This document shows positions 2,663-31,760 of a stretch of 31,999 nucleotides of DNA, piece by piece. The notes beneath the pieces are model-generated. The model searched no databases and was not told where the DNA came from. It worked only from the letters and a program-made list of their open reading frames with translations. Source of the DNA: an uncultured Myxococcales bacterium. GTDB lineage: Bacteria > Myxococcota_A > Polyangia > JAHFDS01. The DNA lies in NCBI GenBank assembly GCA_964593795.1, contig CAZQJC010000017.1, positions 81,389 to 113,387 of the forward strand, read 5' to 3'. The position numbers and the translations under genes are program-made. The first letter of the stretch is position 1. Each line of letters starts with the position of its first letter.

Positions 2663-4186
2663 GTGGCTCCCCGGATTGACTTGCCAGCGCCACGCGTGCC
2701 GGCGACCATCGAGCCGGGGTCCGTGAAGGAACGCAGGGTTTCTCGACGCGTGCGGGTGGAGTTGTCCGTCGGGGACGACCTCGACGTCGGGTTCACCTCG
2801 GCGCTCTGGGACGCCGGCTTCGCCCTCGAGACGCGTCGGCTCGCCAAGGTAGGCACGCCGGTCCGAGGCCACGCGCTGCTGCCAGGTGCCCAGTCCGGCG
2901 GGAGCGCGCGCGTCGCCTTCGAGGGTCAGGTCTCGGCGGTCGTCCCCGGCGATCCGACCACGGTGCGCCCGCCGCTCCTCGAGGTGACCTTCGGTGACGC
3001 CATCGACCCGCGGTGGACCTCGTTCGTGTTTCGACTGACCGGCGTCCCCGAGAGCACCGCCCCGCGCCCGGCCGCGACCGACTCCCAGCTCGTCGCCCCA
3101 CCCGCGCCTGGTCCCGTGGACGACCCGCGCACCGCCCGGAGCAGCACCATCCGTCGCGCCGTTCGCGCCGGGGGCCGGCGAGAGTCGCGGAAGTTCCCGC
3201 GCTTCGACTGCAAGCTCGAGGCGCGGTACGAGTTCTTCGTGGGCCCGGTGGCCGAGCGCAACCACCTCGGCGAGATCCTCGACGTCAGCCGTGGCGGCTG
3301 TCGCCTGAGCACCGGCGAGCGCAAGGAGGCCCCGTTCTCGCGCGCGTTCGTGCACCTCAAGCTGCCCGTCGGCGACAAGGTCCGCATGCTGGCCGTCGTG
3401 CGCTGGTCGGTGGCGCCCGCCGAGGGGCGCCCCGGCTCGATGGGCGTCCAGTTCGAGTCGGGACAGACGCTCTCCCCGGCGTACGAGCAGTACCTCGCGC
3501 AGCTCGAGGTCGCAGAGGCCGAGCGCCTGGCCCGCGAGGCGCCGCCACCGGAGCCGATTCCGCCCCCCGTGGTGCCGCCGGTTCGGCGCCAGGCGACGAT
3601 CGGCCTTCGCGAGGTCGCCGAGGTGGCGCGCGCGGCGCAGCAGGCCCGGACCGGCACGCCGCCGCCCCCGACCAGGCGCGACGAGACGTTCCCCATGTGG
3701 CGCGGGCCGGGTGGGCGGATCATGACGCCGGACCCGGCGAGCGCGCCACTCGAGCCGCCCCTGCCCGCTGCGCCGCGGACGACTCCCGCGCCGCCACCGC
3801 CCGCGCGGACCACGCCGCCGCCCTCGGCTCCCCCGCGAGCCACGGCTCCGCCCGCGGAGCGCACGCGAACGGCGCCGCCGCCCGCGGCTCCCGGGGGGGA
3901 CGCCGAGGCGAAGGTGGCGGACCTCCTGTCCGAATACCTCGCCTCGCCCGAGCCACCGCCCGCGCCCACCACGGCTCCCCCCGATCCCGCGCCCGCGCCG
4001 CCCGACGAGGCGTTCGCGAGCATGCTGCGCGACTACGTCGTGGAGGAGCCCGCGGCGGCCCAGCAGGTGCCGTCACCGCCTCCCGAGCCTCCTGCCAGCC
4101 CGGCACCGGCCGCCAGGCCCGCGAACGTCGACTTCCTCCTCTACGACTACCTGACGGACGATCCCGCGAAGAAGAAAAAGACCTGA
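2663..4186 (+). CDS. Tandem PilZ-domain (c-di-GMP binding) protein with long Pro/Ala-rich C-terminal tail
   Basis: Second domain has canonical RxxxR...D/NxSxGG (RRESRKFPRFDC ... ILDVSRGGCRLS). First domain has RRVSRRVRVEL with a degenerate second motif. The C-terminal ~200 aa are low-complexity Pro-rich. Start is ambiguous (GTG at 2663 or GTG at ~2720). Confidence 0.6.
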   Translation: MAPRIDLPAPRVPATIEPGSVKERRVSRRVRVELSVGDDLDVGFTSALWDAGFALETRRLAKVGTPVRGHALLPGAQSGGSARVAFEGQVSAVVPGDPTTVRPPLLEVTFGDAIDPRWTSFVFRLTGVPESTAPRPAATDSQLVAPPAPGPVDDPRTARSSTIRRAVRAGGRRESRKFPRFDCKLEARYEFFVGPVAERNHLGEILDVSRGGCRLSTGERKEAPFSRAFVHLKLPVGDKVRMLAVVRWSVAPAEGRPGSMGVQFESGQTLSPAYEQYLAQLEVAEAERLAREAPPPEPIPPPVVPPVRRQATIGLREVAEVARAAQQARTGTPPPPTRRDETFPMWRGPGGRIMTPDPASAPLEPPLPAAPRTTPAPPPPARTTPPPSAPPRATAPPAERTRTAPPPAAPGGDAEAKVADLLSEYLASPEPPPAPTTAPPDPAPAPPDEAFASMLRDYVVEEPAAAQQVPSPPPEPPASPAPAARPANVDFLLYDYLTDDPAKKKKT

Positions 4187-4246
4187 CGCCAGGCCCCAGG
4201 CCCGATGGGCTCGAACCAGCGCTTGGATGCGCTGCGGCATCCGCCT

Positions 4247-4383
4247 TCGAGGCGAGCGCAGCTCGCCGCAAGGGCGTAGCGAAGCGAAGACGCAGGGTGG
4301 GGGGCCCGTGAGGCCATGCCGAGCGGGGGTGGGGCGGCGCGCCCCGCCTGCGGACGCCTTCCGAGGCGTCCGATCGTAACTAG
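4247..4383. repeat. Copy A of a multi-hairpin intergenic repeat element (shared with 28816..28995)
   Basis: Aligns to 28843..28995: ttcgagGcgagcgcagc...cgcaagggcgtagcga(a)gcg...aagacgcaggg.gggggccc..., then hairpins GGGGC/GCCCC and GGACGCC-ttccga-GGCGTCC. Ends with CTAG, whose TAG is the kamA stop codon. Confidence 0.6.
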
Positions 4384-5765
4384 CCGCGCTGGAAGCGGCG
4401 CGCCTTGTCGAGCGCCTCGTCGAGCATGGGCTGGTGCTGCGCGGGATCGGCCCAGCGCGCCTGGCCGGCCGCCGGTAGCTCGTCGATCGGGTCGAAGTAA
4501 TAGAAGTAGCGATCGGCCTTCACGGCGGGGCTCGTGAACACCGACACCCCGGTCGTGCGGTCGTAGTGCTCGAACGAGTGCGCGTCGCGCTTGCCGCCGC
4601 CACCGGGCGCGTCCACGACGAAGGTCGGCGTGTTGAAGCCGGCCGTGGCCCCGCGCACGTGCTTCTCGAGCGCAATCGCGGTCGCCAGGGTCGTGCGCAG
4701 ATCCTCGACGCCCTGCACGAGGTCGTGCACGTAGACGTAGTAGGGGTGCACGTTGACGAGCGCGAGGCGCCGCAAGAGGAGGGTCATCACCTCGGGCGCG
4801 TCGTTGACCCGGCGCTGCAGCACCGACTGGTTCCGCACGAAGATCCCGCGCTCGAACAGCACGTCCATCGCGCGGCGCGTGATCTCGGTGACCTCGGCCG
4901 GGTGGTTGAAGTGCGTGTGGAGGACGACCTCCTTGTGCATCTTGCGCCCGCGCTCGACCACCCGCGTCAGCGCGTCGAGCCACGCGTGGTCGGTCAGGAT
5001 CTTCTGCGGCATCACCGCCGGCCCCTTGGTCGCAAAGCGCATGCGGCGGATGTTCGGCATCTCGAGCAGCGTCATGCCGATCGCCTCGATCTGCTCGGCG
5101 CGCAGGTTGTACGCGTCGCCGCCCGAGATCACGATGTCCTCGAGCTCCGGCCGGGACTCGATGTAGCGGTAGGCCTTCTTCCAGCGCTCCTCGTTGACCT
5201 TGAGCTGGACCTTCTCGACCTCCTCGGTGTCGATGCCGACCGCGTAGCTGCGCGTGCAGAAGCGGCAGTACACCGGGCACGTGTTGAGCGGCAGGAAGAG
5301 CGCCTTGTCGACGTAGCGGTGGGTCAGCCCCGGCACCGGCGCGTCCGCCTGCTCGCCGAGGGAGTCGAGCCCGAGCTTCGGGTGGTCCGGCAGGAGCTTC
5401 GTCCCGACGGGGATGAACTGGATGCGCAGCGGGTCGTTGTACGGATCCGCCCAGTCGATGAGCGAGAGGAGGTACGGCGAGACGCGCACGCTCATGGGCG
5501 CCCGCGCGAAGCCCGCCTCGGCGTCCTGGAAGAAGCTCTCCGGCGCGAGGCCCTTGATCGCGTCGAGGAGCTTTCTCGCGTTGGTGATCGAGTGCTTGGC
5601 CTGCCAGTGGTGGTCGAGGAACTCCGCCTCCGACACGCCCGCGTACGACGGGATCCGGCGCCAGAAATCCCCACCGAGCAGCTCGCGGTGCGCGAGCGAC
5701 TTCGGGTCCACAGGGGGCTTCTGCGCGGGGACCGCTTCCTCTGAAATCACGGACAGCGACGACAT
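4380..5765 (-). CDS. kamA: Lysine 2,3-aminomutase family radical SAM protein (KamA/EpmB-like)
   Basis: [10 protein letters not shown] (CxxxCxxC radical-SAM cluster motif typical of the KamA family). Length 461 aa. ATG at 5765..5763 ([10 protein letters not shown]). The 1197-aa ORF in the track is an artefactual upstream extension. Confidence 0.75.
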
Positions 5766-7665: not shown

Positions 7666-8289
7666 ATGGACTGGCGCAGAAGCATCGGGATCGTGGGGCT
7701 GGCGCTCGCGGCTGGCGGCTGCAAGGACTTCATCGACGTCTCGAGCCGCGGCACGATGGAGGTGTCGTCGAACGCCTCGAGCGGCTCGTCGTCGGCCGCC
7801 GCCGGAGGCGGCGCCATCATCGCGACCGACTGGCGCAAGACGGGCACGGAGCGCCGCTCGCAGGTGGTCGGCGGCGAGCACCCGCACGCGGTGATGGCCC
7901 CGGAGGCCCGCGGGGACCAGGTGGTCGTGCGGGTCAGCACCGCCAGGGCGCGCGACTGCCTCGTCACCGTCACCGAGTCCTGGGCGAAGTTCGCGCGCTA
8001 CGAGAACGGCACCGAGCGCGCCATCGACCGCAAGGCAGAGGAGTCGCGCGTGACGGAGCTGTGCGAGGTCGCGCCGGCGGGGGGCGTGCCGGTCGTGATC
8101 GAGGACGACAAGCACAGGGTCGTGCTCTCCGCGACTAGCGACGGTACTGGCCGGGCCGAGGCGACCGTCCCCGTGACGCGCCTGGCCGACGTGGCGTGGC
8201 TGCGACTGCGCGCCGGGGGACGCGAGATCCCCGACGGCGCGGTGCCCCTCTTCAAGCTCGCGCGCAGCAGCGGAGCCGGCAGACCATGA
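7666..8289 (+). CDS. Lipoprotein, hypothetical (paralog 1 of tandem pair)
   Basis: MDWRRSIGIVGLALAAGGC lipoprotein signal. Shares a C-terminal block with the next gene (DCLVTVTE...ELCEVAPAGGVPVVIED...SATSDGTGRAEATVPV). Confidence 0.55.
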   Translation: MDWRRSIGIVGLALAAGGCKDFIDVSSRGTMEVSSNASSGSSSAAAGGGAIIATDWRKTGTERRSQVVGGEHPHAVMAPEARGDQVVVRVSTARARDCLVTVTESWAKFARYENGTERAIDRKAEESRVTELCEVAPAGGVPVVIEDDKHRVVLSATSDGTGRAEATVPVTRLADVAWLRLRAGGREIPDGAVPLFKLARSSGAGRP

Positions 8290-8933
8290 CGGCGCTCATC
8301 CCCTCGGTCCTCGCGGTCCTCCTCCTCGGTGGGTGCGACCTCATGATCAAGCTGGCCGACCTGTCTTCGAGCGGGGGCGGGGGCGGTGCGTCGCGAGAGC
8401 GCGTCCAGGACCCGAGCCCGACCGGCGAGCAGCTCGTGTCGTCTCGTCGCGTCAAGGGGCCGCTCGGCGCGACCGCGCGCGTGCTCGCGCTGCACGCCTA
8501 CGAGAAGTCGCCGGGCCAGGTCGTGATGTCCCTCGAGGCCGCCGACGAGCGCCGCTGCGTGGTCAGCACGATCAACACCTACCGCATCGGAAAGGCCTCG
8601 CCTGGCGAGGGCGATCAGGGCAGCGCGAGCCGCACCAGCACCGAGGTCGAGGTGTGCGAGTCCGCGCCCGTCGCGGCGCCGATCGCGATCGCGTTCGCCG
8701 ACGGCGCCACGCTCGCGAGCGGCACGACGGGGCCGGACGGCAAGCTCGAGGTGGTCGTCACCCCCGACGTGTTCGCGACCCACGCGGGCGCGCCTGTCGC
8801 CACGCTCGGCGGTGCGCGCATCGCCACCGCCGACGCGGCCCTCGCCCAGCTCGCCGAGATGCTGCGCAAGCGGGCGCCCAAGGCGGGCGCCGAAAGGGCG
8901 CCGAACGTTACTGCAGCTTCTTCGACGCCGTGA
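8286..8933 (+). CDS. Lipoprotein, hypothetical (paralog 2 of tandem pair)
   Basis: MTALIPSVLAVLLLGGC lipobox. ATGA start/stop overlap with the upstream gene. Paralogous block RCVVSTINT...EVCESAPVAAPIAIAFADGATLASGTTGPDGKLEVVVTP. Confidence 0.55.
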   Translation: MTALIPSVLAVLLLGGCDLMIKLADLSSSGGGGGASRERVQDPSPTGEQLVSSRRVKGPLGATARVLALHAYEKSPGQVVMSLEAADERRCVVSTINTYRIGKASPGEGDQGSASRTSTEVEVCESAPVAAPIAIAFADGATLASGTTGPDGKLEVVVTPDVFATHAGAPVATLGGARIATADAALAQLAEMLRKRAPKAGAERAPNVTAASSTP

Positions 8934-21826: not shown

Positions 21827-21869
21827 CGGAGGATCGTACCAGGGCGCCGGCGGCGCCGCGAATCGCCGC

Positions 21870-22071
21870 CTAGTACCTCGCCACAGTGAAGATGATGGCT
21901 TCGAGCTCTGGAGGAACGCTGTGGCGAGGTACTACGTGGCGGGCCGCCGGGCCGCCCCAAGGCACGCCACAGGGACCCGCGCAGCCCGGAGGGCGGAGCG
22001 GGAGAAAACAGCTAGTACCTCGCCCCGCCACCTCCCACCAGCCGATCAAGACCCCTGTGGCGAGGTACTAG
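21870..22071. mobile_element. MITE-like non-autonomous element / structured repeat with perfect 17-bp terminal inverted repeats
   Basis: CTAGTACCTCGCCACAG at 21870..21886 and its exact reverse complement CTGTGGCGAGGTACTAG at 22055..22071. An internal second copy of each end lies at 21919..21934 and 22012..22024. The 8-mer CTGTGGCG/CGCCACAG occurs 6 times as three inverted pairs. The element is flanked by CTAG. No coding capacity. Confidence 0.5.
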
Positions 22072-22700
22072 GCCCAGAGGTCGGCGAACACCTCGAGGAA
22101 CGCCGGCTCGACCAGCGCCCGGACGTCGGCCATCGCGATCTCCCGGCCGGCCTCGACCGAGAGCGAGGTCATGACGCCCGCGGCGAAGCCGCACGGGTTG
22201 ATCGCGCGGAACTTCTCGAGGTCGGTGCTGACGTTCAGCGCGAAGCCGTGCAGGGTCACCCACTTGCGCACGGCCACGCCGATCGAGGCGAGCTTGCGCC
22301 GGCCGTCCACCCAGGTGCCGGTCTTGCCCTCGGCGCGCCCCGAGGGCACGCCCAGCCGCGCCGCTACCGCGATGAGCACCTCCTCCAGGTCACGGAGGTA
22401 GCGGTGCAGGTCGCGGCGCGGGCCGTCGAGCCGGAGGATGGGATAGCCGACGAGCTGGCCCGGGCCGTGGTACGTGACGTCGCCCCCGCGCTCGACCTCG
22501 AAGATCGGGATATCGCCCGGTGCGAGGACGTTGGCCACCGAGCCGAGCCGCCGTCCCAGCGTGATGACGTCGGGGTGCTCGCAGAGCAGGAGGGTGTCCG
22601 GGGCGGTTCCTGCGATCCGGGCCTGCAGGATCTCCTTCTGGAGGGCCCAGGCGGCGCCGTATTCGACCCTGCCAACCCAGCGGATCTCCGGGTGCCCCAC
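22068..22700 (-). CDS. lipB: Lipoyl(octanoyl) transferase LipB
   Basis: GTG start. EHPDVITLGRR, HGPGQLVGYPIL, RKLASIGVAVRKWVTLHGFALNV, the characteristic LipB motifs. 210 aa. Confidence 0.85.
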   Translation of the reverse strand: MGHPEIRWVGRVEYGAAWALQKEILQARIAGTAPDTLLLCEHPDVITLGRRLGSVANVLAPGDIPIFEVERGGDVTYHGPGQLVGYPILRLDGPRRDLHRYLRDLEEVLIAVAARLGVPSGRAEGKTGTWVDGRRKLASIGVAVRKWVTLHGFALNVSTDLEKFRAINPCGFAAGVMTSLSVEAGREIAMADVRALVEPAFLEVFADLWA

Positions 22701-22730
22701 GAAAAAAGACTAGCATGGTCGGCAATTTCT

Positions 22731-22791
22731 GCACCGCGTCATTAGATTTAACGCAGACGACGTTGACGCGGTGCGTTGTCGTGGCTAGCCT
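22731..22791 (+). promoter_or_regulatory. Sigma70-like promoter (TTGACG-17-TAGCCT) overlapped by an 11-bp inverted repeat operator, followed by AGGAGG RBS
   Basis: GCACCGCGTCA (22731..22741) N22 TGACGCGGTGC (22764..22774). -35 TTGACG at 22763..22768, -10 TAGCCT at 22786..22791, SD AGGAGG at 22802..22807, ATG at 22816. Confidence 0.4.
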
Positions 22792-27799: not shown

Positions 27800-28774
27800 T
27801 CAGAACTCCATCGCGCGCTTGACGGCCTCGAGGACGCGCGGCGCATCAGGAAGGTACTCGTGCTCGAGCGTGTACGGGAACGGCGTGTCGAAGCCCGTCA
27901 CGCGCAGGATCGGCCCCTCGAGGTGCAGCATCGCGCGCTCCTGGATGGTCGCGATGAGCTCGGCCCCGTAGCCGCAGGTGCGCGGCGCCTCGTGGACCAC
28001 CACGGCGCGCCCGGTCTTCTTGACGCTCGTGATGATGATGTCGACGTCGAGCGGCACGAGCGTGCGCGGATCGATCACCTCCATCTCGATGCCCGCCGCC
28101 GCGGCCGGCTCGACCGCCTCGAGCACCGTGTGCAGCATCGCGCCGTACGCGATCACGGTGACGTGGCGGCCCTCGCGCACGACGCGCCCCTGACCGAGCG
28201 GGATCGTGTACTCGCCCTCGGGCACGTCCGCGCGCGCTGCGCGATACACGCGCTTGGGCTCCATGAAGATGATCGGATCGTCCTCGCGGATGGCCGAGAG
28301 CAAGAGGCCCTTGGCCTCGTACGGGTCCGCGGGGATGACGACCTTGAGGCCCGGCGTGTGGCAGAAGTACGCCTCGGGCGACTGCGAGTGGTAGTGCCCG
28401 CCGCGGATGCCGCCGCCGTAGGGCGTCCGGATCACCATCGGCGCCGAGTACTGCCCGCCCGAGCGATACCGGAACTTCGCCAGCTCGTTCACGATCTGGT
28501 CGTACGCGGGGTAGATGAAGTCGGCGAACTGGATCTCCGGCACCGGCCGCAGGCCATAGAGCGCCATGCCGATCGCGGCGCCGATGATGCCGGCCTCCGC
28601 GAGCGGCGTGTCGATCACGCGCTCTCCGCCGAACTCGTCGAAGAGGCCGCTCGTCGCGCGGAAGACTCCACCGAACTTGCCGACGTCCTCGCCGAGCACG
28701 ACGACGCGGTCGTCGCGACGCATCTCGAGCTTGAGCGCATCGTTGACGGCCTGGATGATGTTCATTTGGGGCAT
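27800..28774 (-). CDS. 2-oxo acid dehydrogenase E1 component beta subunit
   Basis: MPQMNIIQAVNDAL...VVLGEDVGKFGGVFRATSGL...RVIDTPLAEAGIIGAAIGMALYGLRPVPEIQFADF. Strong SD AAGGAG 6 nt upstream of the ATG. Its stop lies 1 nt before the E2 start. Confidence 0.85.
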   Translation of the reverse strand: MPQMNIIQAVNDALKLEMRRDDRVVVLGEDVGKFGGVFRATSGLFDEFGGERVIDTPLAEAGIIGAAIGMALYGLRPVPEIQFADFIYPAYDQIVNELAKFRYRSGGQYSAPMVIRTPYGGGIRGGHYHSQSPEAYFCHTPGLKVVIPADPYEAKGLLLSAIREDDPIIFMEPKRVYRAARADVPEGEYTIPLGQGRVVREGRHVTVIAYGAMLHTVLEAVEPAAAAGIEMEVIDPRTLVPLDVDIIITSVKKTGRAVVVHEAPRTCGYGAELIATIQERAMLHLEGPILRVTGFDTPFPYTLEHEYLPDAPRVLEAVKRAMEF

Positions 28775-28815
28775 TTCTGGCTCCTTGGCGCGTTCCGACG
28801 GCGGCTAGTGCCTCG

Positions 28816-28995
28816 ACCGAGGCGTGGTGATTCGCGCCGGCGCGTTCGAGCCGAGCGCAGCGAGGCGCAAGGGCGTAGCGAGCGCGCGAGCGAAGACGCA
28901 GGGAAGGGGGCCCAGTCGGGCTGTGCCCGACTGGGGGAGGGGCAGTCGTGCCCCTCCTGGTGACGGCCTTCCGAGGCCGTCACACGCAACACCTA
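28816..28995. repeat. Copy B of multi-hairpin repeat element (shared with 4247..4383), flanked by CTAG on both sides
   Basis: Three hairpins: GTGACGGCC-ttccga-GGCCGTCAC, AGGGGCA-gtcg-TGCCCCT, CCCAGTCGGGC-tgt-GCCCGACTGGG. A core of ~60 bp is near-identical to copy A (gcgcaagggcgtagcga...gaagacgcaggg). It lies between the stop of the PHM-like gene and the E1beta RBS. Confidence 0.6.
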
Positions 28996-30054
28996 GTGCT
29001 CGCGCGCGATGCCGTCGGGATCGGTGGACATGAGGATGCACCCCTGTCCGCCCACGCGATCCGCCGGATCGTTGACGTACCAGACGCCGCCGAGGATGCA
29101 CATCTCGTCGCTCGCGAGGAAGCCGAACGAGAGCGCGTGGTCCGTCGTGTTGTTGTAGCTGCACTGGAACCGGAAGCCCGTGCCCGCCTTCATCAGCACC
29201 GGTGAGTCGAACGAGTAGTCGGTGGTCTCGTAGTCGGGCGACGCGAAGATCATCTGCCCGTCCTTCTCGCCACCCGTGTACCAGACCTTGAAGTCGGTGC
29301 CCCACTGGTGCGTGTGCCGGACGATCTTCTGCACGATGAGGTCGTGATCGAAGCGGCACTCGCCGAGGAAGTCCTTCTGCTGGCCCGCGGGCGTGTTGAT
29401 CGTGTAGTTGACGAAGGCGAAGACGCGGGCCTTCTTCTGCACCTTCGAGGCGTCGATCGTGTGGAAGTTGATCGCCGCGCGGGCGCGCACGCGCGACGCG
29501 GTGGCGTTGAGCATGTGCAGGTCGAAGACGATGTACTGGCCGCCGTGGTACTCGCGGCCGACGCCCTCGGGGTACTTCTCGTCGTAGTACTTGTGCTGGA
29601 TGCCGATGACCGGCTGCTGGTTCTCGCCGAACGCCTGCGCCCCGAAGGGCGAGCACGACACCACGTCGCCCTCGTGCATGGAGGCCTCGGTCGCCGAGCC
29701 CGGATCGATGGCCGTCACGATGAGGTGGTGGCTGCCGGGCGTGAGGCCGAGCTCGAAGCGGTTGACGTAGTAGGTGTCGCTGGGGCTGCCCGGGAGCTTG
29801 GCGACCTCGCAGTACTCGCGGTCGTCGCCGGGCTCGATGTTCGTGCCCGACGAGCGGATCTGGAAGCCCTGCGCGGGCAGCGGCAGGCACGGCGGGTCGT
29901 CGCACTCCGCGCTCCCGCCGACGCCGGCGTCGGGCGTGGCGGCTCCACCCTGGCCCGCAGCACCGGAACCGGCGGTGCCGCCCGCGGCCCCCTTGTTCCC
30001 ATCGGAGCCGCAGGCCACGAACACGAGCAGAGCGAAGGGAAGGAGGCGACGCAT
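28993..30054 (-). CDS. Lipoprotein with copper type II ascorbate-dependent monooxygenase-like (PHM/DBH) fold
   Basis: MRRLLPFALLVFVACGS lipobox. Candidate Cu ligands spaced as in PHM: HH (GSHHLIV), H ~61-71 aa later (YHGG/LHML), HxH (RHTHQWG) ~78 aa later, Met in DEMC exactly 72 aa after HTH. Confidence 0.5.
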   Translation of the reverse strand: MRRLLPFALLVFVACGSDGNKGAAGGTAGSGAAGQGGAATPDAGVGGSAECDDPPCLPLPAQGFQIRSSGTNIEPGDDREYCEVAKLPGSPSDTYYVNRFELGLTPGSHHLIVTAIDPGSATEASMHEGDVVSCSPFGAQAFGENQQPVIGIQHKYYDEKYPEGVGREYHGGQYIVFDLHMLNATASRVRARAAINFHTIDASKVQKKARVFAFVNYTINTPAGQQKDFLGECRFDHDLIVQKIVRHTHQWGTDFKVWYTGGEKDGQMIFASPDYETTDYSFDSPVLMKAGTGFRFQCSYNNTTDHALSFGFLASDEMCILGGVWYVNDPADRVGGQGCILMSTDPDGIAREH

Positions 30055-31543: not shown

Positions 31544-31635
31544 GAGGGTTGATCGAAACAGGCGCAGTGCTGCGAGACGGGTACGGAGACCGTGACGGGA
31601 CCGGTTCCGGTTCCGGTTCCGCCTCGGTGCCGGTG

Positions 31636-31760
31636 ACCGGCATCCGGGATCGGTCGCCTGCGTCCGGGATCGGTCGCCGGTTCCCGGCATCCGGGATCGG
31701 TCGCCGGTGCCCGGCATCCGGGATCGGTCGTCGTGACCGGGATCGGGCGACCGGGCCCGG
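31636..31760. repeat. Degenerate tandem repeat (unit ~21-27 bp, core TCCGGGATCGGTCGCC x5), preceded by (GGTTCC)x3
   Basis: catccgggatcggtcgcc at 31641, 31688 and 31715 (last copy degenerate, ggtcgTcg). A variant starting cgtccgggatcggtcgcc at 31661. A degenerate copy at ~31736. Intergenic between the HEAT gene and the downstream minus-strand gene. Confidence 0.55.

Follow-up and report, generated by a model that had tools for sequence, protein, structure and literature searches.

A multi-copy family of small, hairpin-bearing repeats at CTAG stop-codon sites, probably mobile, in an uncultured myxobacterium and its relatives

Dispersed intergenic repeats of 100–200 nt, such as Correia/NEMIS, ERIC, RUP and BOX, are co-transcribed with flanking genes and form stable RNA folds, mainly through long terminal inverted repeats. 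The insertion sequence IS630 prefers CTAG as its target and duplicates TA. Within the IS481 family, ISRe46/TnRErm46 of Rhodococcus equi is bounded by NCTAGN direct repeats followed by the inward inverted repeat TGTTGCGGGTCATGACGTTG, and the TAG of the direct repeat supplies stop codons for the transposase and the adjacent parB genes (PMC6794481). ISLxc2 of Leifsonia xyli is a second IS481 member with NCTAGN (PMC2516522). MITEPsy1, an IS5-derived element of Pseudomonas syringae, is small and non-coding and inserts at CTAG or YTAA, duplicating 4 nt (PMC3189936). The RAYT-associated REP and BIME sequences are extragenic, GC-rich, hairpin-forming and thought to be mobile, and are mostly found 3' of genes, where neighbouring ORFs run in one direction or converge; REP units measure 20–40 bp and carry a GTAG or CGTC tag (PMC3733652). 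The element described here resembles each of these systems in part, and differs from each of them.

The stretch of DNA that was analysed (31,999 nt, hereafter the window) carries two copies of the element. An initial annotation had described a repeat with a shared core and three GC-rich hairpins in both copies, each copy starting at a CTAG that contains a stop codon, and alignment bears this out. The CTAGs lie at 4380-4383 and 28993-28996, and their minus-strand TAGs end a KamA-family radical SAM gene (4380..5765, minus) and a Cu2_monoox_C-like lipoprotein gene (28993..30054, minus), respectively. Copy A (4221..4378, minus in element sense) is 158 nt long and matches the covariance model at 4247-4383 with an E value of 2.5e-30. 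Its hairpin 1, CGGACGCCT-TCCG-AGGCGTCCG on the plus strand (4351..4372; helix 2), has both partners changed in five of its ten pairs. Hairpin 2 is GGGGCG-GCG-CGCCCC with outer pairs (4328..4348; helix 3), and the imperfect hairpin 3 has three central mismatches (4305..4327; helix 4). The conserved core of copy A (4246..4304, minus) is C-rich and G-poor in the mRNA sense, has AGCGA-type short repeats on the plus strand and reads TTCGAGGCGAGCGCAGCTCGCCGCAAGGGCGTAGCGA...AGCGAAGACGCAGGG. Near the 3' end of the element lies a distal hairpin, GGATGC-GCTGCG-GCATCC (4225..4242), with a stem resembling that of hairpin 1; the inverted-repeat test was non-significant. Copy B in its long form (28810..28991, minus) is 182 nt long, matches the model at 28846-28996 (E 5.8e-36) and, in a blastn comparison with the copy in L005, gives an alignment spanning 28804-29000. 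Its hairpin 1 (GTGACGGCC-TTCCGA-GGCCGTCAC, 28960..28983) and hairpin 2 (GGAGGGGCA/TGCCCCTCC, 28936..28957) are followed by a hairpin 3 with a perfect 11-bp stem (28911..28935) and by the conserved C-rich core (28846..28910, minus), which differs from that of copy A by a few substitutions and a 7-nt insertion in B. A repeat search of the window returned the core as family D17 (41 nt, 88% identity).

The element was found to extend well beyond the two copies of the initial annotation. Genomes, one per species, were scanned with a 23-base core pattern, and among the matches listed at least six contigs of the related MAG Myxococcales bacterium nzgw250 carry a full copy each. A scan of metagenomes yielded at least two more distinct copies, in groundwater. 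With these additional copies, at least eight in number and at unrelated loci, the supposed two-copy repeat becomes a dispersed multi-copy family. Two other matches from the genome scan, L001 (Acinetobacter) and L003 (Rhodospirillales), are without the element and represent chance matches of the short pattern in unrelated MAGs. Flanking sequences are mutually unrelated across the ten loci compared. A covariance model built from eight copies scores all ten at E <= 2e-17, and the values of about 1e-30 to 1e-36 for the window copies demonstrate a likeness beyond chance. Applied to about 150 kb of related DNA, the model returned nothing besides the copies already known, and a scan of viral contigs gave no match. 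Likewise, the Rfam 15 covariance models did not match the element at the gathering threshold or at E up to 10, a tRNA/tmRNA scan found neither, and nothing relevant was found in the literature on myxobacterial REPs or MITEs. Close relatives of the host are annotated as Polyangia or Myxococcales, and the host lineage is a Polyangia-like one among the myxobacteria.

The element is approximately 160–190 nt long and, in the sense of the upstream gene, has a common order of NCTAG, an end T(GT)TGCGAGTG, hairpins 1, 2 and 3, the C-rich core and a variable tail; the 3' parts are heterogeneous among copies. Indels in the aligned cores are not multiples of three, which indicates that the element is non-coding. 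It is thus small, non-coding and multi-copy at unrelated loci, as MITEs are. The apparent constancy of the core among copies was in part produced by the search patterns, which demanded an exact core; only the comparison of copies A and B is free of this bias. In L007 (4140-4380) two copies stand in tandem with a run of ten Ns, a scaffold gap, between them; this arrangement could reflect a genuine tandem insertion, with the CTAG regenerated, or else a collapse of the assembly over the repeat.

The locus of copy A could be compared with relatives in which the site is empty. The window is syntenic with L009 over approximately 16 kb at 83-92% nucleotide identity, and around copy A the sole segment of the window lacking an L009 counterpart is 4183-4378. 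In relatives whose KamA is 98%, 95% and 93% identical, the distance from the KamA stop to the stop of the convergent neighbour is 9, 3 and 7 nt. Copy A is absent at the orthologous site in L009, L012 and the P0004 contig, with nothing between the stops. The L009 empty site is GGGTAGTCC, or in gene sense GCGCGGG TAG TCCGAGCCC. The filled site in the window, again in gene sense, reads GCGCGGC TAG T, then the element, then GCTGGT TCGAGCCC, and the TCGAGCCC that follows GCTGGT matches the CCGAGCCC that follows the TAG of the empty site. Comparison of the filled and empty sites demonstrates, at the level of sequence, that copy A is an insertion; GCTAGT and GCTGGT form its borders, and the original TAG stop is preserved. 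The left limit of copy A had initially been placed at 4247, which is too short; the empty sites in L009 and L012 set it at about 4215-4221.

Three further segments of the window differ from L009. Adjoining copy A, 20 extra bases at 4187-4206 (CGCCAGGCCCCAGGCCCGAT, with CCAGGCC twice) are located between the stop of a PilZ gene and a shared GGGCTCGRA spacer; they may represent a footprint, or else a CTAG-type repeat that has decayed. The segments 7866-8065 and 8265-8890 are likewise without a counterpart in the otherwise syntenic L009 contig.

In element sense, copy A is flanked by the hexamers GCTAGT (4379..4384, minus), which holds the KamA stop, and GCTGGT (4215..4220, minus), the putative second copy of a target duplication with an A-to-G change; the empty site sets these boundaries independently. 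In copy B the flanks are ACTAGG (28992..28997, minus), which holds the stop of the monooxygenase-like gene and is followed inward by TGTTGCGTGTGACGG, and ACTAGC (28804..28809, minus). These junctions, which include one clean filled/empty pair, fit a 2-, 4- or 6-bp duplication equally, or an element-borne terminal CTRG. Terminal inverted repeats could not be demonstrated: in local alignments, the first 45-70 nt matched the reverse-complemented last 45-70 nt no better than shuffles did (p 0.4-0.6), and inverted repeats of about 30 nt seen by eye in copy A received no support from the shuffle test. By eye, the ends are of a short TG...CA type, with a convincing right end only in L004 (CACTCGGACAA-CTGG). 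Several copies end in ...GCA-CTRG, and the 3' ends of four copies finish in CTRG. The start of copy B, ACTAGG|TGTTGCGTGTGACGGCCTCG, shares 14 of 20 positions with the ISRe46 inverted repeat TGTTGCGGGTCATGACGTTG, including six of nine A/T positions, and A/T is rare in the host genome; by our own rough estimate, allowing for the choices made, the probability of such a match by chance is well below 1e-3. Most other copies start T(T)GCGAGTG after the hexamer, and their right ends are degenerate.

These ends suggest that the element is closest to the IS481 family, which includes IS481 of Bordetella: the target is CTAG, NCTAGN stands on both sides, the end starts TGTTGCG and the TAG serves as a stop codon. 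However, the element differs from IS481 members in having no transposase gene, a length of 160-190 nt, a degenerate right-end repeat and an interior of three covarying hairpins and a C-rich core, and its host is a myxobacterium, not an actinobacterium or Bordetella. The element is most likely a non-autonomous MITE moved by a DDE transposase, for which the IS481 family is the leading candidate, and we hold this reading as a whole to be probable rather than secure. A DDE-type MITE could also be moved by another CTAG-using family, either of IS5 type, with a 4-bp duplication of CTAG/YTAR, or of IS630 type, with duplication of TA. The equal fit of 2-, 4- and 6-bp duplications at the junctions of copies A and B is compatible with both, MITEPsy1 provides a precedent for 4-nt duplication at CTAG or YTAA (PMC3189936), and a neighbouring small element of the window, described below, is flanked by CTAG...CTAC, which would agree with a TA duplication free of mismatches. 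The ends of our element are, however, unlike the IS5-type repeat GGAAGGT (PMC3189936), copy B matches the IS481-family repeat at 14 of 20 positions, and most copies have TG after the hexamer, as in IS3/IS481 ends. Movement by an IS5- or IS630-type transposase is therefore considered rather unlikely, although it is the strongest of the rival accounts. MITEPsy1 itself is similar in being small and non-coding and in inserting at and duplicating CTAG (PMC3189936), but it is 100 nt long, has clear 18-nt inverted repeats, GGAAGGTCTGAAAAAGCC, end sequences unrelated to those of our element, and no multi-hairpin interior.

The relationship between the element and stop codons was assessed across all copies. 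Nine of the ten begin with NCTAG, and seven of the ten have a TAG that closes, in frame, a long upstream ORF of high GC3. In the case of L017, the ORF reads through the site as CTA and stops at a TGA of the element four codons inside. The L005 copy abuts another repeat, and the L016 copy has lost its CTAG and adjoins a divergent gene. CTAG itself is depleted approximately five-fold in the window, with 15 occurrences observed against 83 expected from base composition. Genuine stop codons account for at least four of these 15, and a small repeat lies next to three of the four. The first hairpin lies 8-9 nt from the stop codon, and in all eight gene-adjacent copies the hairpins come first (two-sided binomial p ~0.008). 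The link to stop codons is best explained by the target specificity for CTAG and not by a function tied to translation termination. Three other tetranucleotides are also scarce in the window: TTAA, TATA and ATAT occur 1, 3 and 3 times, respectively, where 13 of each were expected.

The hairpins were the basis of the initial claim of compensatory change. As proposed, hairpin 1 keeps an identical loop in both window copies while its stem differs by paired substitutions, GGACGCC-TTCCGA-GGCGTCC in copy A (4351-4372) and GTGACGGCC-TTCCGA-GGCCGTCAC in copy B, and hairpin 2 does the same (GGGGCG/CGCCCC against GGAGGGGCA/TGCCCCTCC). The changes remained compensatory, not random, when all ten copies were compared. 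Across these copies the paired share of cells is 94.5%, as against 87.3% in shuffles, and none of 500 shuffles reached the observed value. RNAalifold and pair counting gave 13 double-changed pairs (33 cells), compared with one or two pairs when the partner column was slid. At least three different, perfectly complementary central triplets occur in hairpin 3 (GTC/GAC, GCT/AGC and GAT/ATC). All covarying changes lead from one Watson-Crick pair to another; no cell has a one-sided G-U change, and the few mismatches include A-C cells, which are G-U on the opposite strand. In both window copies the antisense fold is no less stable than the sense fold. Since G-U intermediates are lacking and the antisense folds no less well, the covariation is not specific evidence for RNA. 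The earlier reading of selection on structure therefore stands insofar as the covariation is real and persists with more copies; the strictly Watson-Crick changes do not point to RNA in particular. The pattern agrees with maintenance of a palindrome at the DNA level at least as closely as with a selected RNA fold, and possible routes to this are recognition during transposition or template-switch correction of quasi-palindromes.

Such DNA hairpins, together with the fixed orientation, bring to mind a single-strand element of the HUH/Y1 type, either palindrome-associated and derived from IS200/IS605 or a composite REP, which would insert 3' of CTAG without duplication and have its DNA hairpins recognised. 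The lack of significant terminal inverted repeats, the subterminal and internal hairpins with purely Watson-Crick covariation, the strict orientation relative to the upstream gene (8/8) and the CTRG at four 3' ends, which could be an element-borne cleavage site, all agree with this account. IS200/IS605-derived palindrome-associated elements share with our element the absence of obvious inverted repeats, the subterminal hairpins, a fixed tetranucleotide and a fixed orientation. The ends of our element, however, resemble IS481, its 5' end the IS481 repeat in particular, and show the NCTAGN pattern; a duplication is plausible, no Y1 transposase is linked to the element, and none was noticed in an unsystematic look over approximately 230 kb of retrieved loci. 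Moreover, other CTAG-flanked elements of the same genome have classical inverted repeats, and the GTAG or CGTC tag beside the 20-40-bp palindromes that define REPs (PMC3733652) is missing. In extragenic position, GC content, hairpin formation, presumed mobility and location downstream of genes the element is REP-like (PMC3733652); yet it is a 160-190-nt composite of three unrelated hairpins and a non-palindromic core, with a CTAG tag and signs of duplication, and does not have the palindrome-tag arrangement. Correia/NEMIS-type repeats differ as well, since the structure of our element consists of three independent internal hairpins and its terminal repeats are barely detectable. An HUH/Y1 origin is thus regarded as improbable, and the non-autonomous MITE is preferred.

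A role at the RNA level was also considered, in which the element would primarily be a host cis-regulatory RNA, inherited vertically at each of its loci and serving as a multi-hairpin terminator, an attenuator, a stabiliser of mRNA 3' ends or the dehydrogenase operon leader. The element always lies in sense orientation directly after the stop, with hairpin 1 8-9 nt away, and its hairpin stems are maintained. On the mRNA-sense strand the core contains C at ~0.49, G at ~0.25 and A at ~0.05, and its C-over-G skew is near the 99th percentile within the window. Such a composition is that of sites where Rho loads and would suit an unstructured tract of this kind, which is taken as a lead only. Against an ancestral RNA stands the absence of the element at the same sites in 93-98% identical relatives, whose genes function with spacers of 3-9 nt, as well as the 28-nt E1alpha-E1beta spacer in relatives and the presence of the element downstream of unrelated genes. 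It also has no U-tract after its hairpins, no promoter, no Rfam family match and no G-U pairs, and its antisense fold is at least as good. When both copies and their surroundings were scanned for consensus motifs, no U-tract terminator was detected at the hairpins and no sigma-70 promoter inside the element; the sole terminator-like site (4178-4197) is outside the element, and none is present in 28500-29300. Accordingly, the element is without the GC-rich hairpin and following U-run of an intrinsic terminator. A conserved cis-regulatory RNA is very improbable, and a secondary, exapted RNA effect of the element may exist. The core lacks the GG of a sigma-54-type -24/-12 promoter, and this reading was rejected. 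An integron attC was rejected too, since R''/R' core sites are absent, nothing but the element was inserted and the genes on either side are of the housekeeping type.

Copy B differs from copy A in its surroundings. As initially noted, it precedes the dehydrogenase operon, 30 nt from the ATG of the 2-oxoacid dehydrogenase E1-beta gene (27800..28774, minus), with which a minus-strand E1beta-E2-E1alpha cluster begins. In four relatives a 377-aa E1-alpha gene, ending GGC CAC TAG, directly precedes E1-beta. The spacer between the two is 28 nt in L020, L021 and L022, and 103 nt in nzgw250 (L019, L024), where a different insert, flanked by CTAG, occupies it. The monooxygenase-like gene has orthologues (77-78% identity) that end in GAGCAC TGA and are followed by a convergent gene, with the element absent; in L014, L015 and L020 the orthologous genes are not followed by copy B. 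In the window the 377-aa E1-alpha gene is missing before E1-beta, and the monooxygenase-like gene and copy B are found in its place. Copy B therefore sits where the E1alpha-E1beta junction of the relatives has been replaced, and it thereby marks a rearrangement breakpoint. The non-identical hexamers ACTAGG and ACTAGC are the pattern that would be expected if two copies had recombined.

Other small repeats are present in the window and in its relatives. Most intergenic CTAGs of the window come in pairs, with a small structured insert between them. A different small element, present twice (21870-21935 and 22012-22071), has clean 13-nt inverted repeats, TACCTCGCCACAG / CTGTGGCGAGGTA; its copies are flanked by CTAG...CTAC and CTAG...CTAG, respectively, and the CTAG at 22068 supplies the stop codon of a LipB-like gene (22068-22709, minus). 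A weak Rfam match to mir-4860 at 21861-21946 is simply the hairpin of the TACCTCGCCACAG element. Between the LipB-like gene and the next gene (22710-22788) lies a comparatively AT-rich insert of 71 nt with CTAG on both sides and a 10-bp hairpin, CACCGCGTCA / TGACGCGGTG. Near the window end, at 31629-31745, there are four tandem copies of a 27-nt unit, GCCGGTGACCGGCATCCGGGATCGGTC, with 74-86% identity to the reference copy. In nzgw250, a further CTAG-flanked repeat family (L019 5024-5117, also in L024, and L005 2827-2934) is 96% identical over 80 nt. This repeat fills the E1alpha-E1beta spacer in L019; in L005 it adjoins the element studied here head-to-tail, the two sharing a CTAG, and it starts with an IS481-like end, CCTAGG|TGTTGTCTTGCGC.

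These data demonstrate a multi-copy family with CTAG-associated ends and hairpin covariation. Of the candidate roles first put forward, the REP/MITE-like mobile repeat is the one supported, by ten independent loci, by the absence of copy A from 93-98% identical relatives and by the CTAG-centred flanking repeats. For a non-autonomous MITE, the following course of events is proposed. A DDE transposase, likely of IS481 type and encoded elsewhere in the genome, would recognise the element ends and insert the element at the tetranucleotide CTAG, duplicating a short CTAG-centred target (NCTAGN). Many of the CTAG sites that survive in this 71% G+C genome would be stop codons of the form C+TAG, and insertions would land exactly at gene ends. 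The duplicated TAG would keep the gene closed and make the insertion nearly harmless. Copies would thus appear to start at stop codons because insertions targeted to CTAG regenerate TAG at little cost. The hairpins and the C-rich core may be kept for propagation, or as a barrier or terminator at the transcript 3' end.

Several observations count against the MITE. Its end-to-end inverted repeats do not exceed shuffles, its 3' parts are heterogeneous, and its junctions would also fit an element-borne CTRG. A symmetric CTAG target does not predict the single orientation of all eight gene-adjacent copies, and compensatory changes as clean as these are not expected of decaying MITE copies. The element could also do more than spread itself, as an orientation-locked, transposon-borne 3'-end cassette acting as a portable Rho-type terminator, insulator or mRNA stabiliser, or else its strictly Watson-Crick covariation could reflect a DNA-hairpin-dependent mode of transposition that is new for CTAG-specific elements. 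Such a cassette could consist of three stop-proximal hairpins followed by an unstructured C-rich tract, retained only in sense orientation. We consider these options unlikely, if somewhat less so than an HUH/Y1 origin. Worth following up are the interior with its several hairpins, the fixed orientation and the fact that covariation is purely Watson-Crick.

The element family is new, and its kind, a small CTAG-targeting mobile element, is familiar; it is not a new regulatory RNA. Target choice explains why a structured repeat seems to start at stop codons, in that a transposon acting on the depleted CTAG regenerates TAG, and this regeneration offers a safe landing place in compact, high-GC genomes. 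An unannotated repeat family, with at least two more CTAG-flanked families nearby, is thereby flagged in uncultured Polyangia-like myxobacteria. Repeats of this type can fragment assemblies and misdirect gene prediction, and they can indicate where rearrangements took place. Should the hairpins or the C-rich core have an effect on transcripts, operon polarity would be rewired by the family as well.
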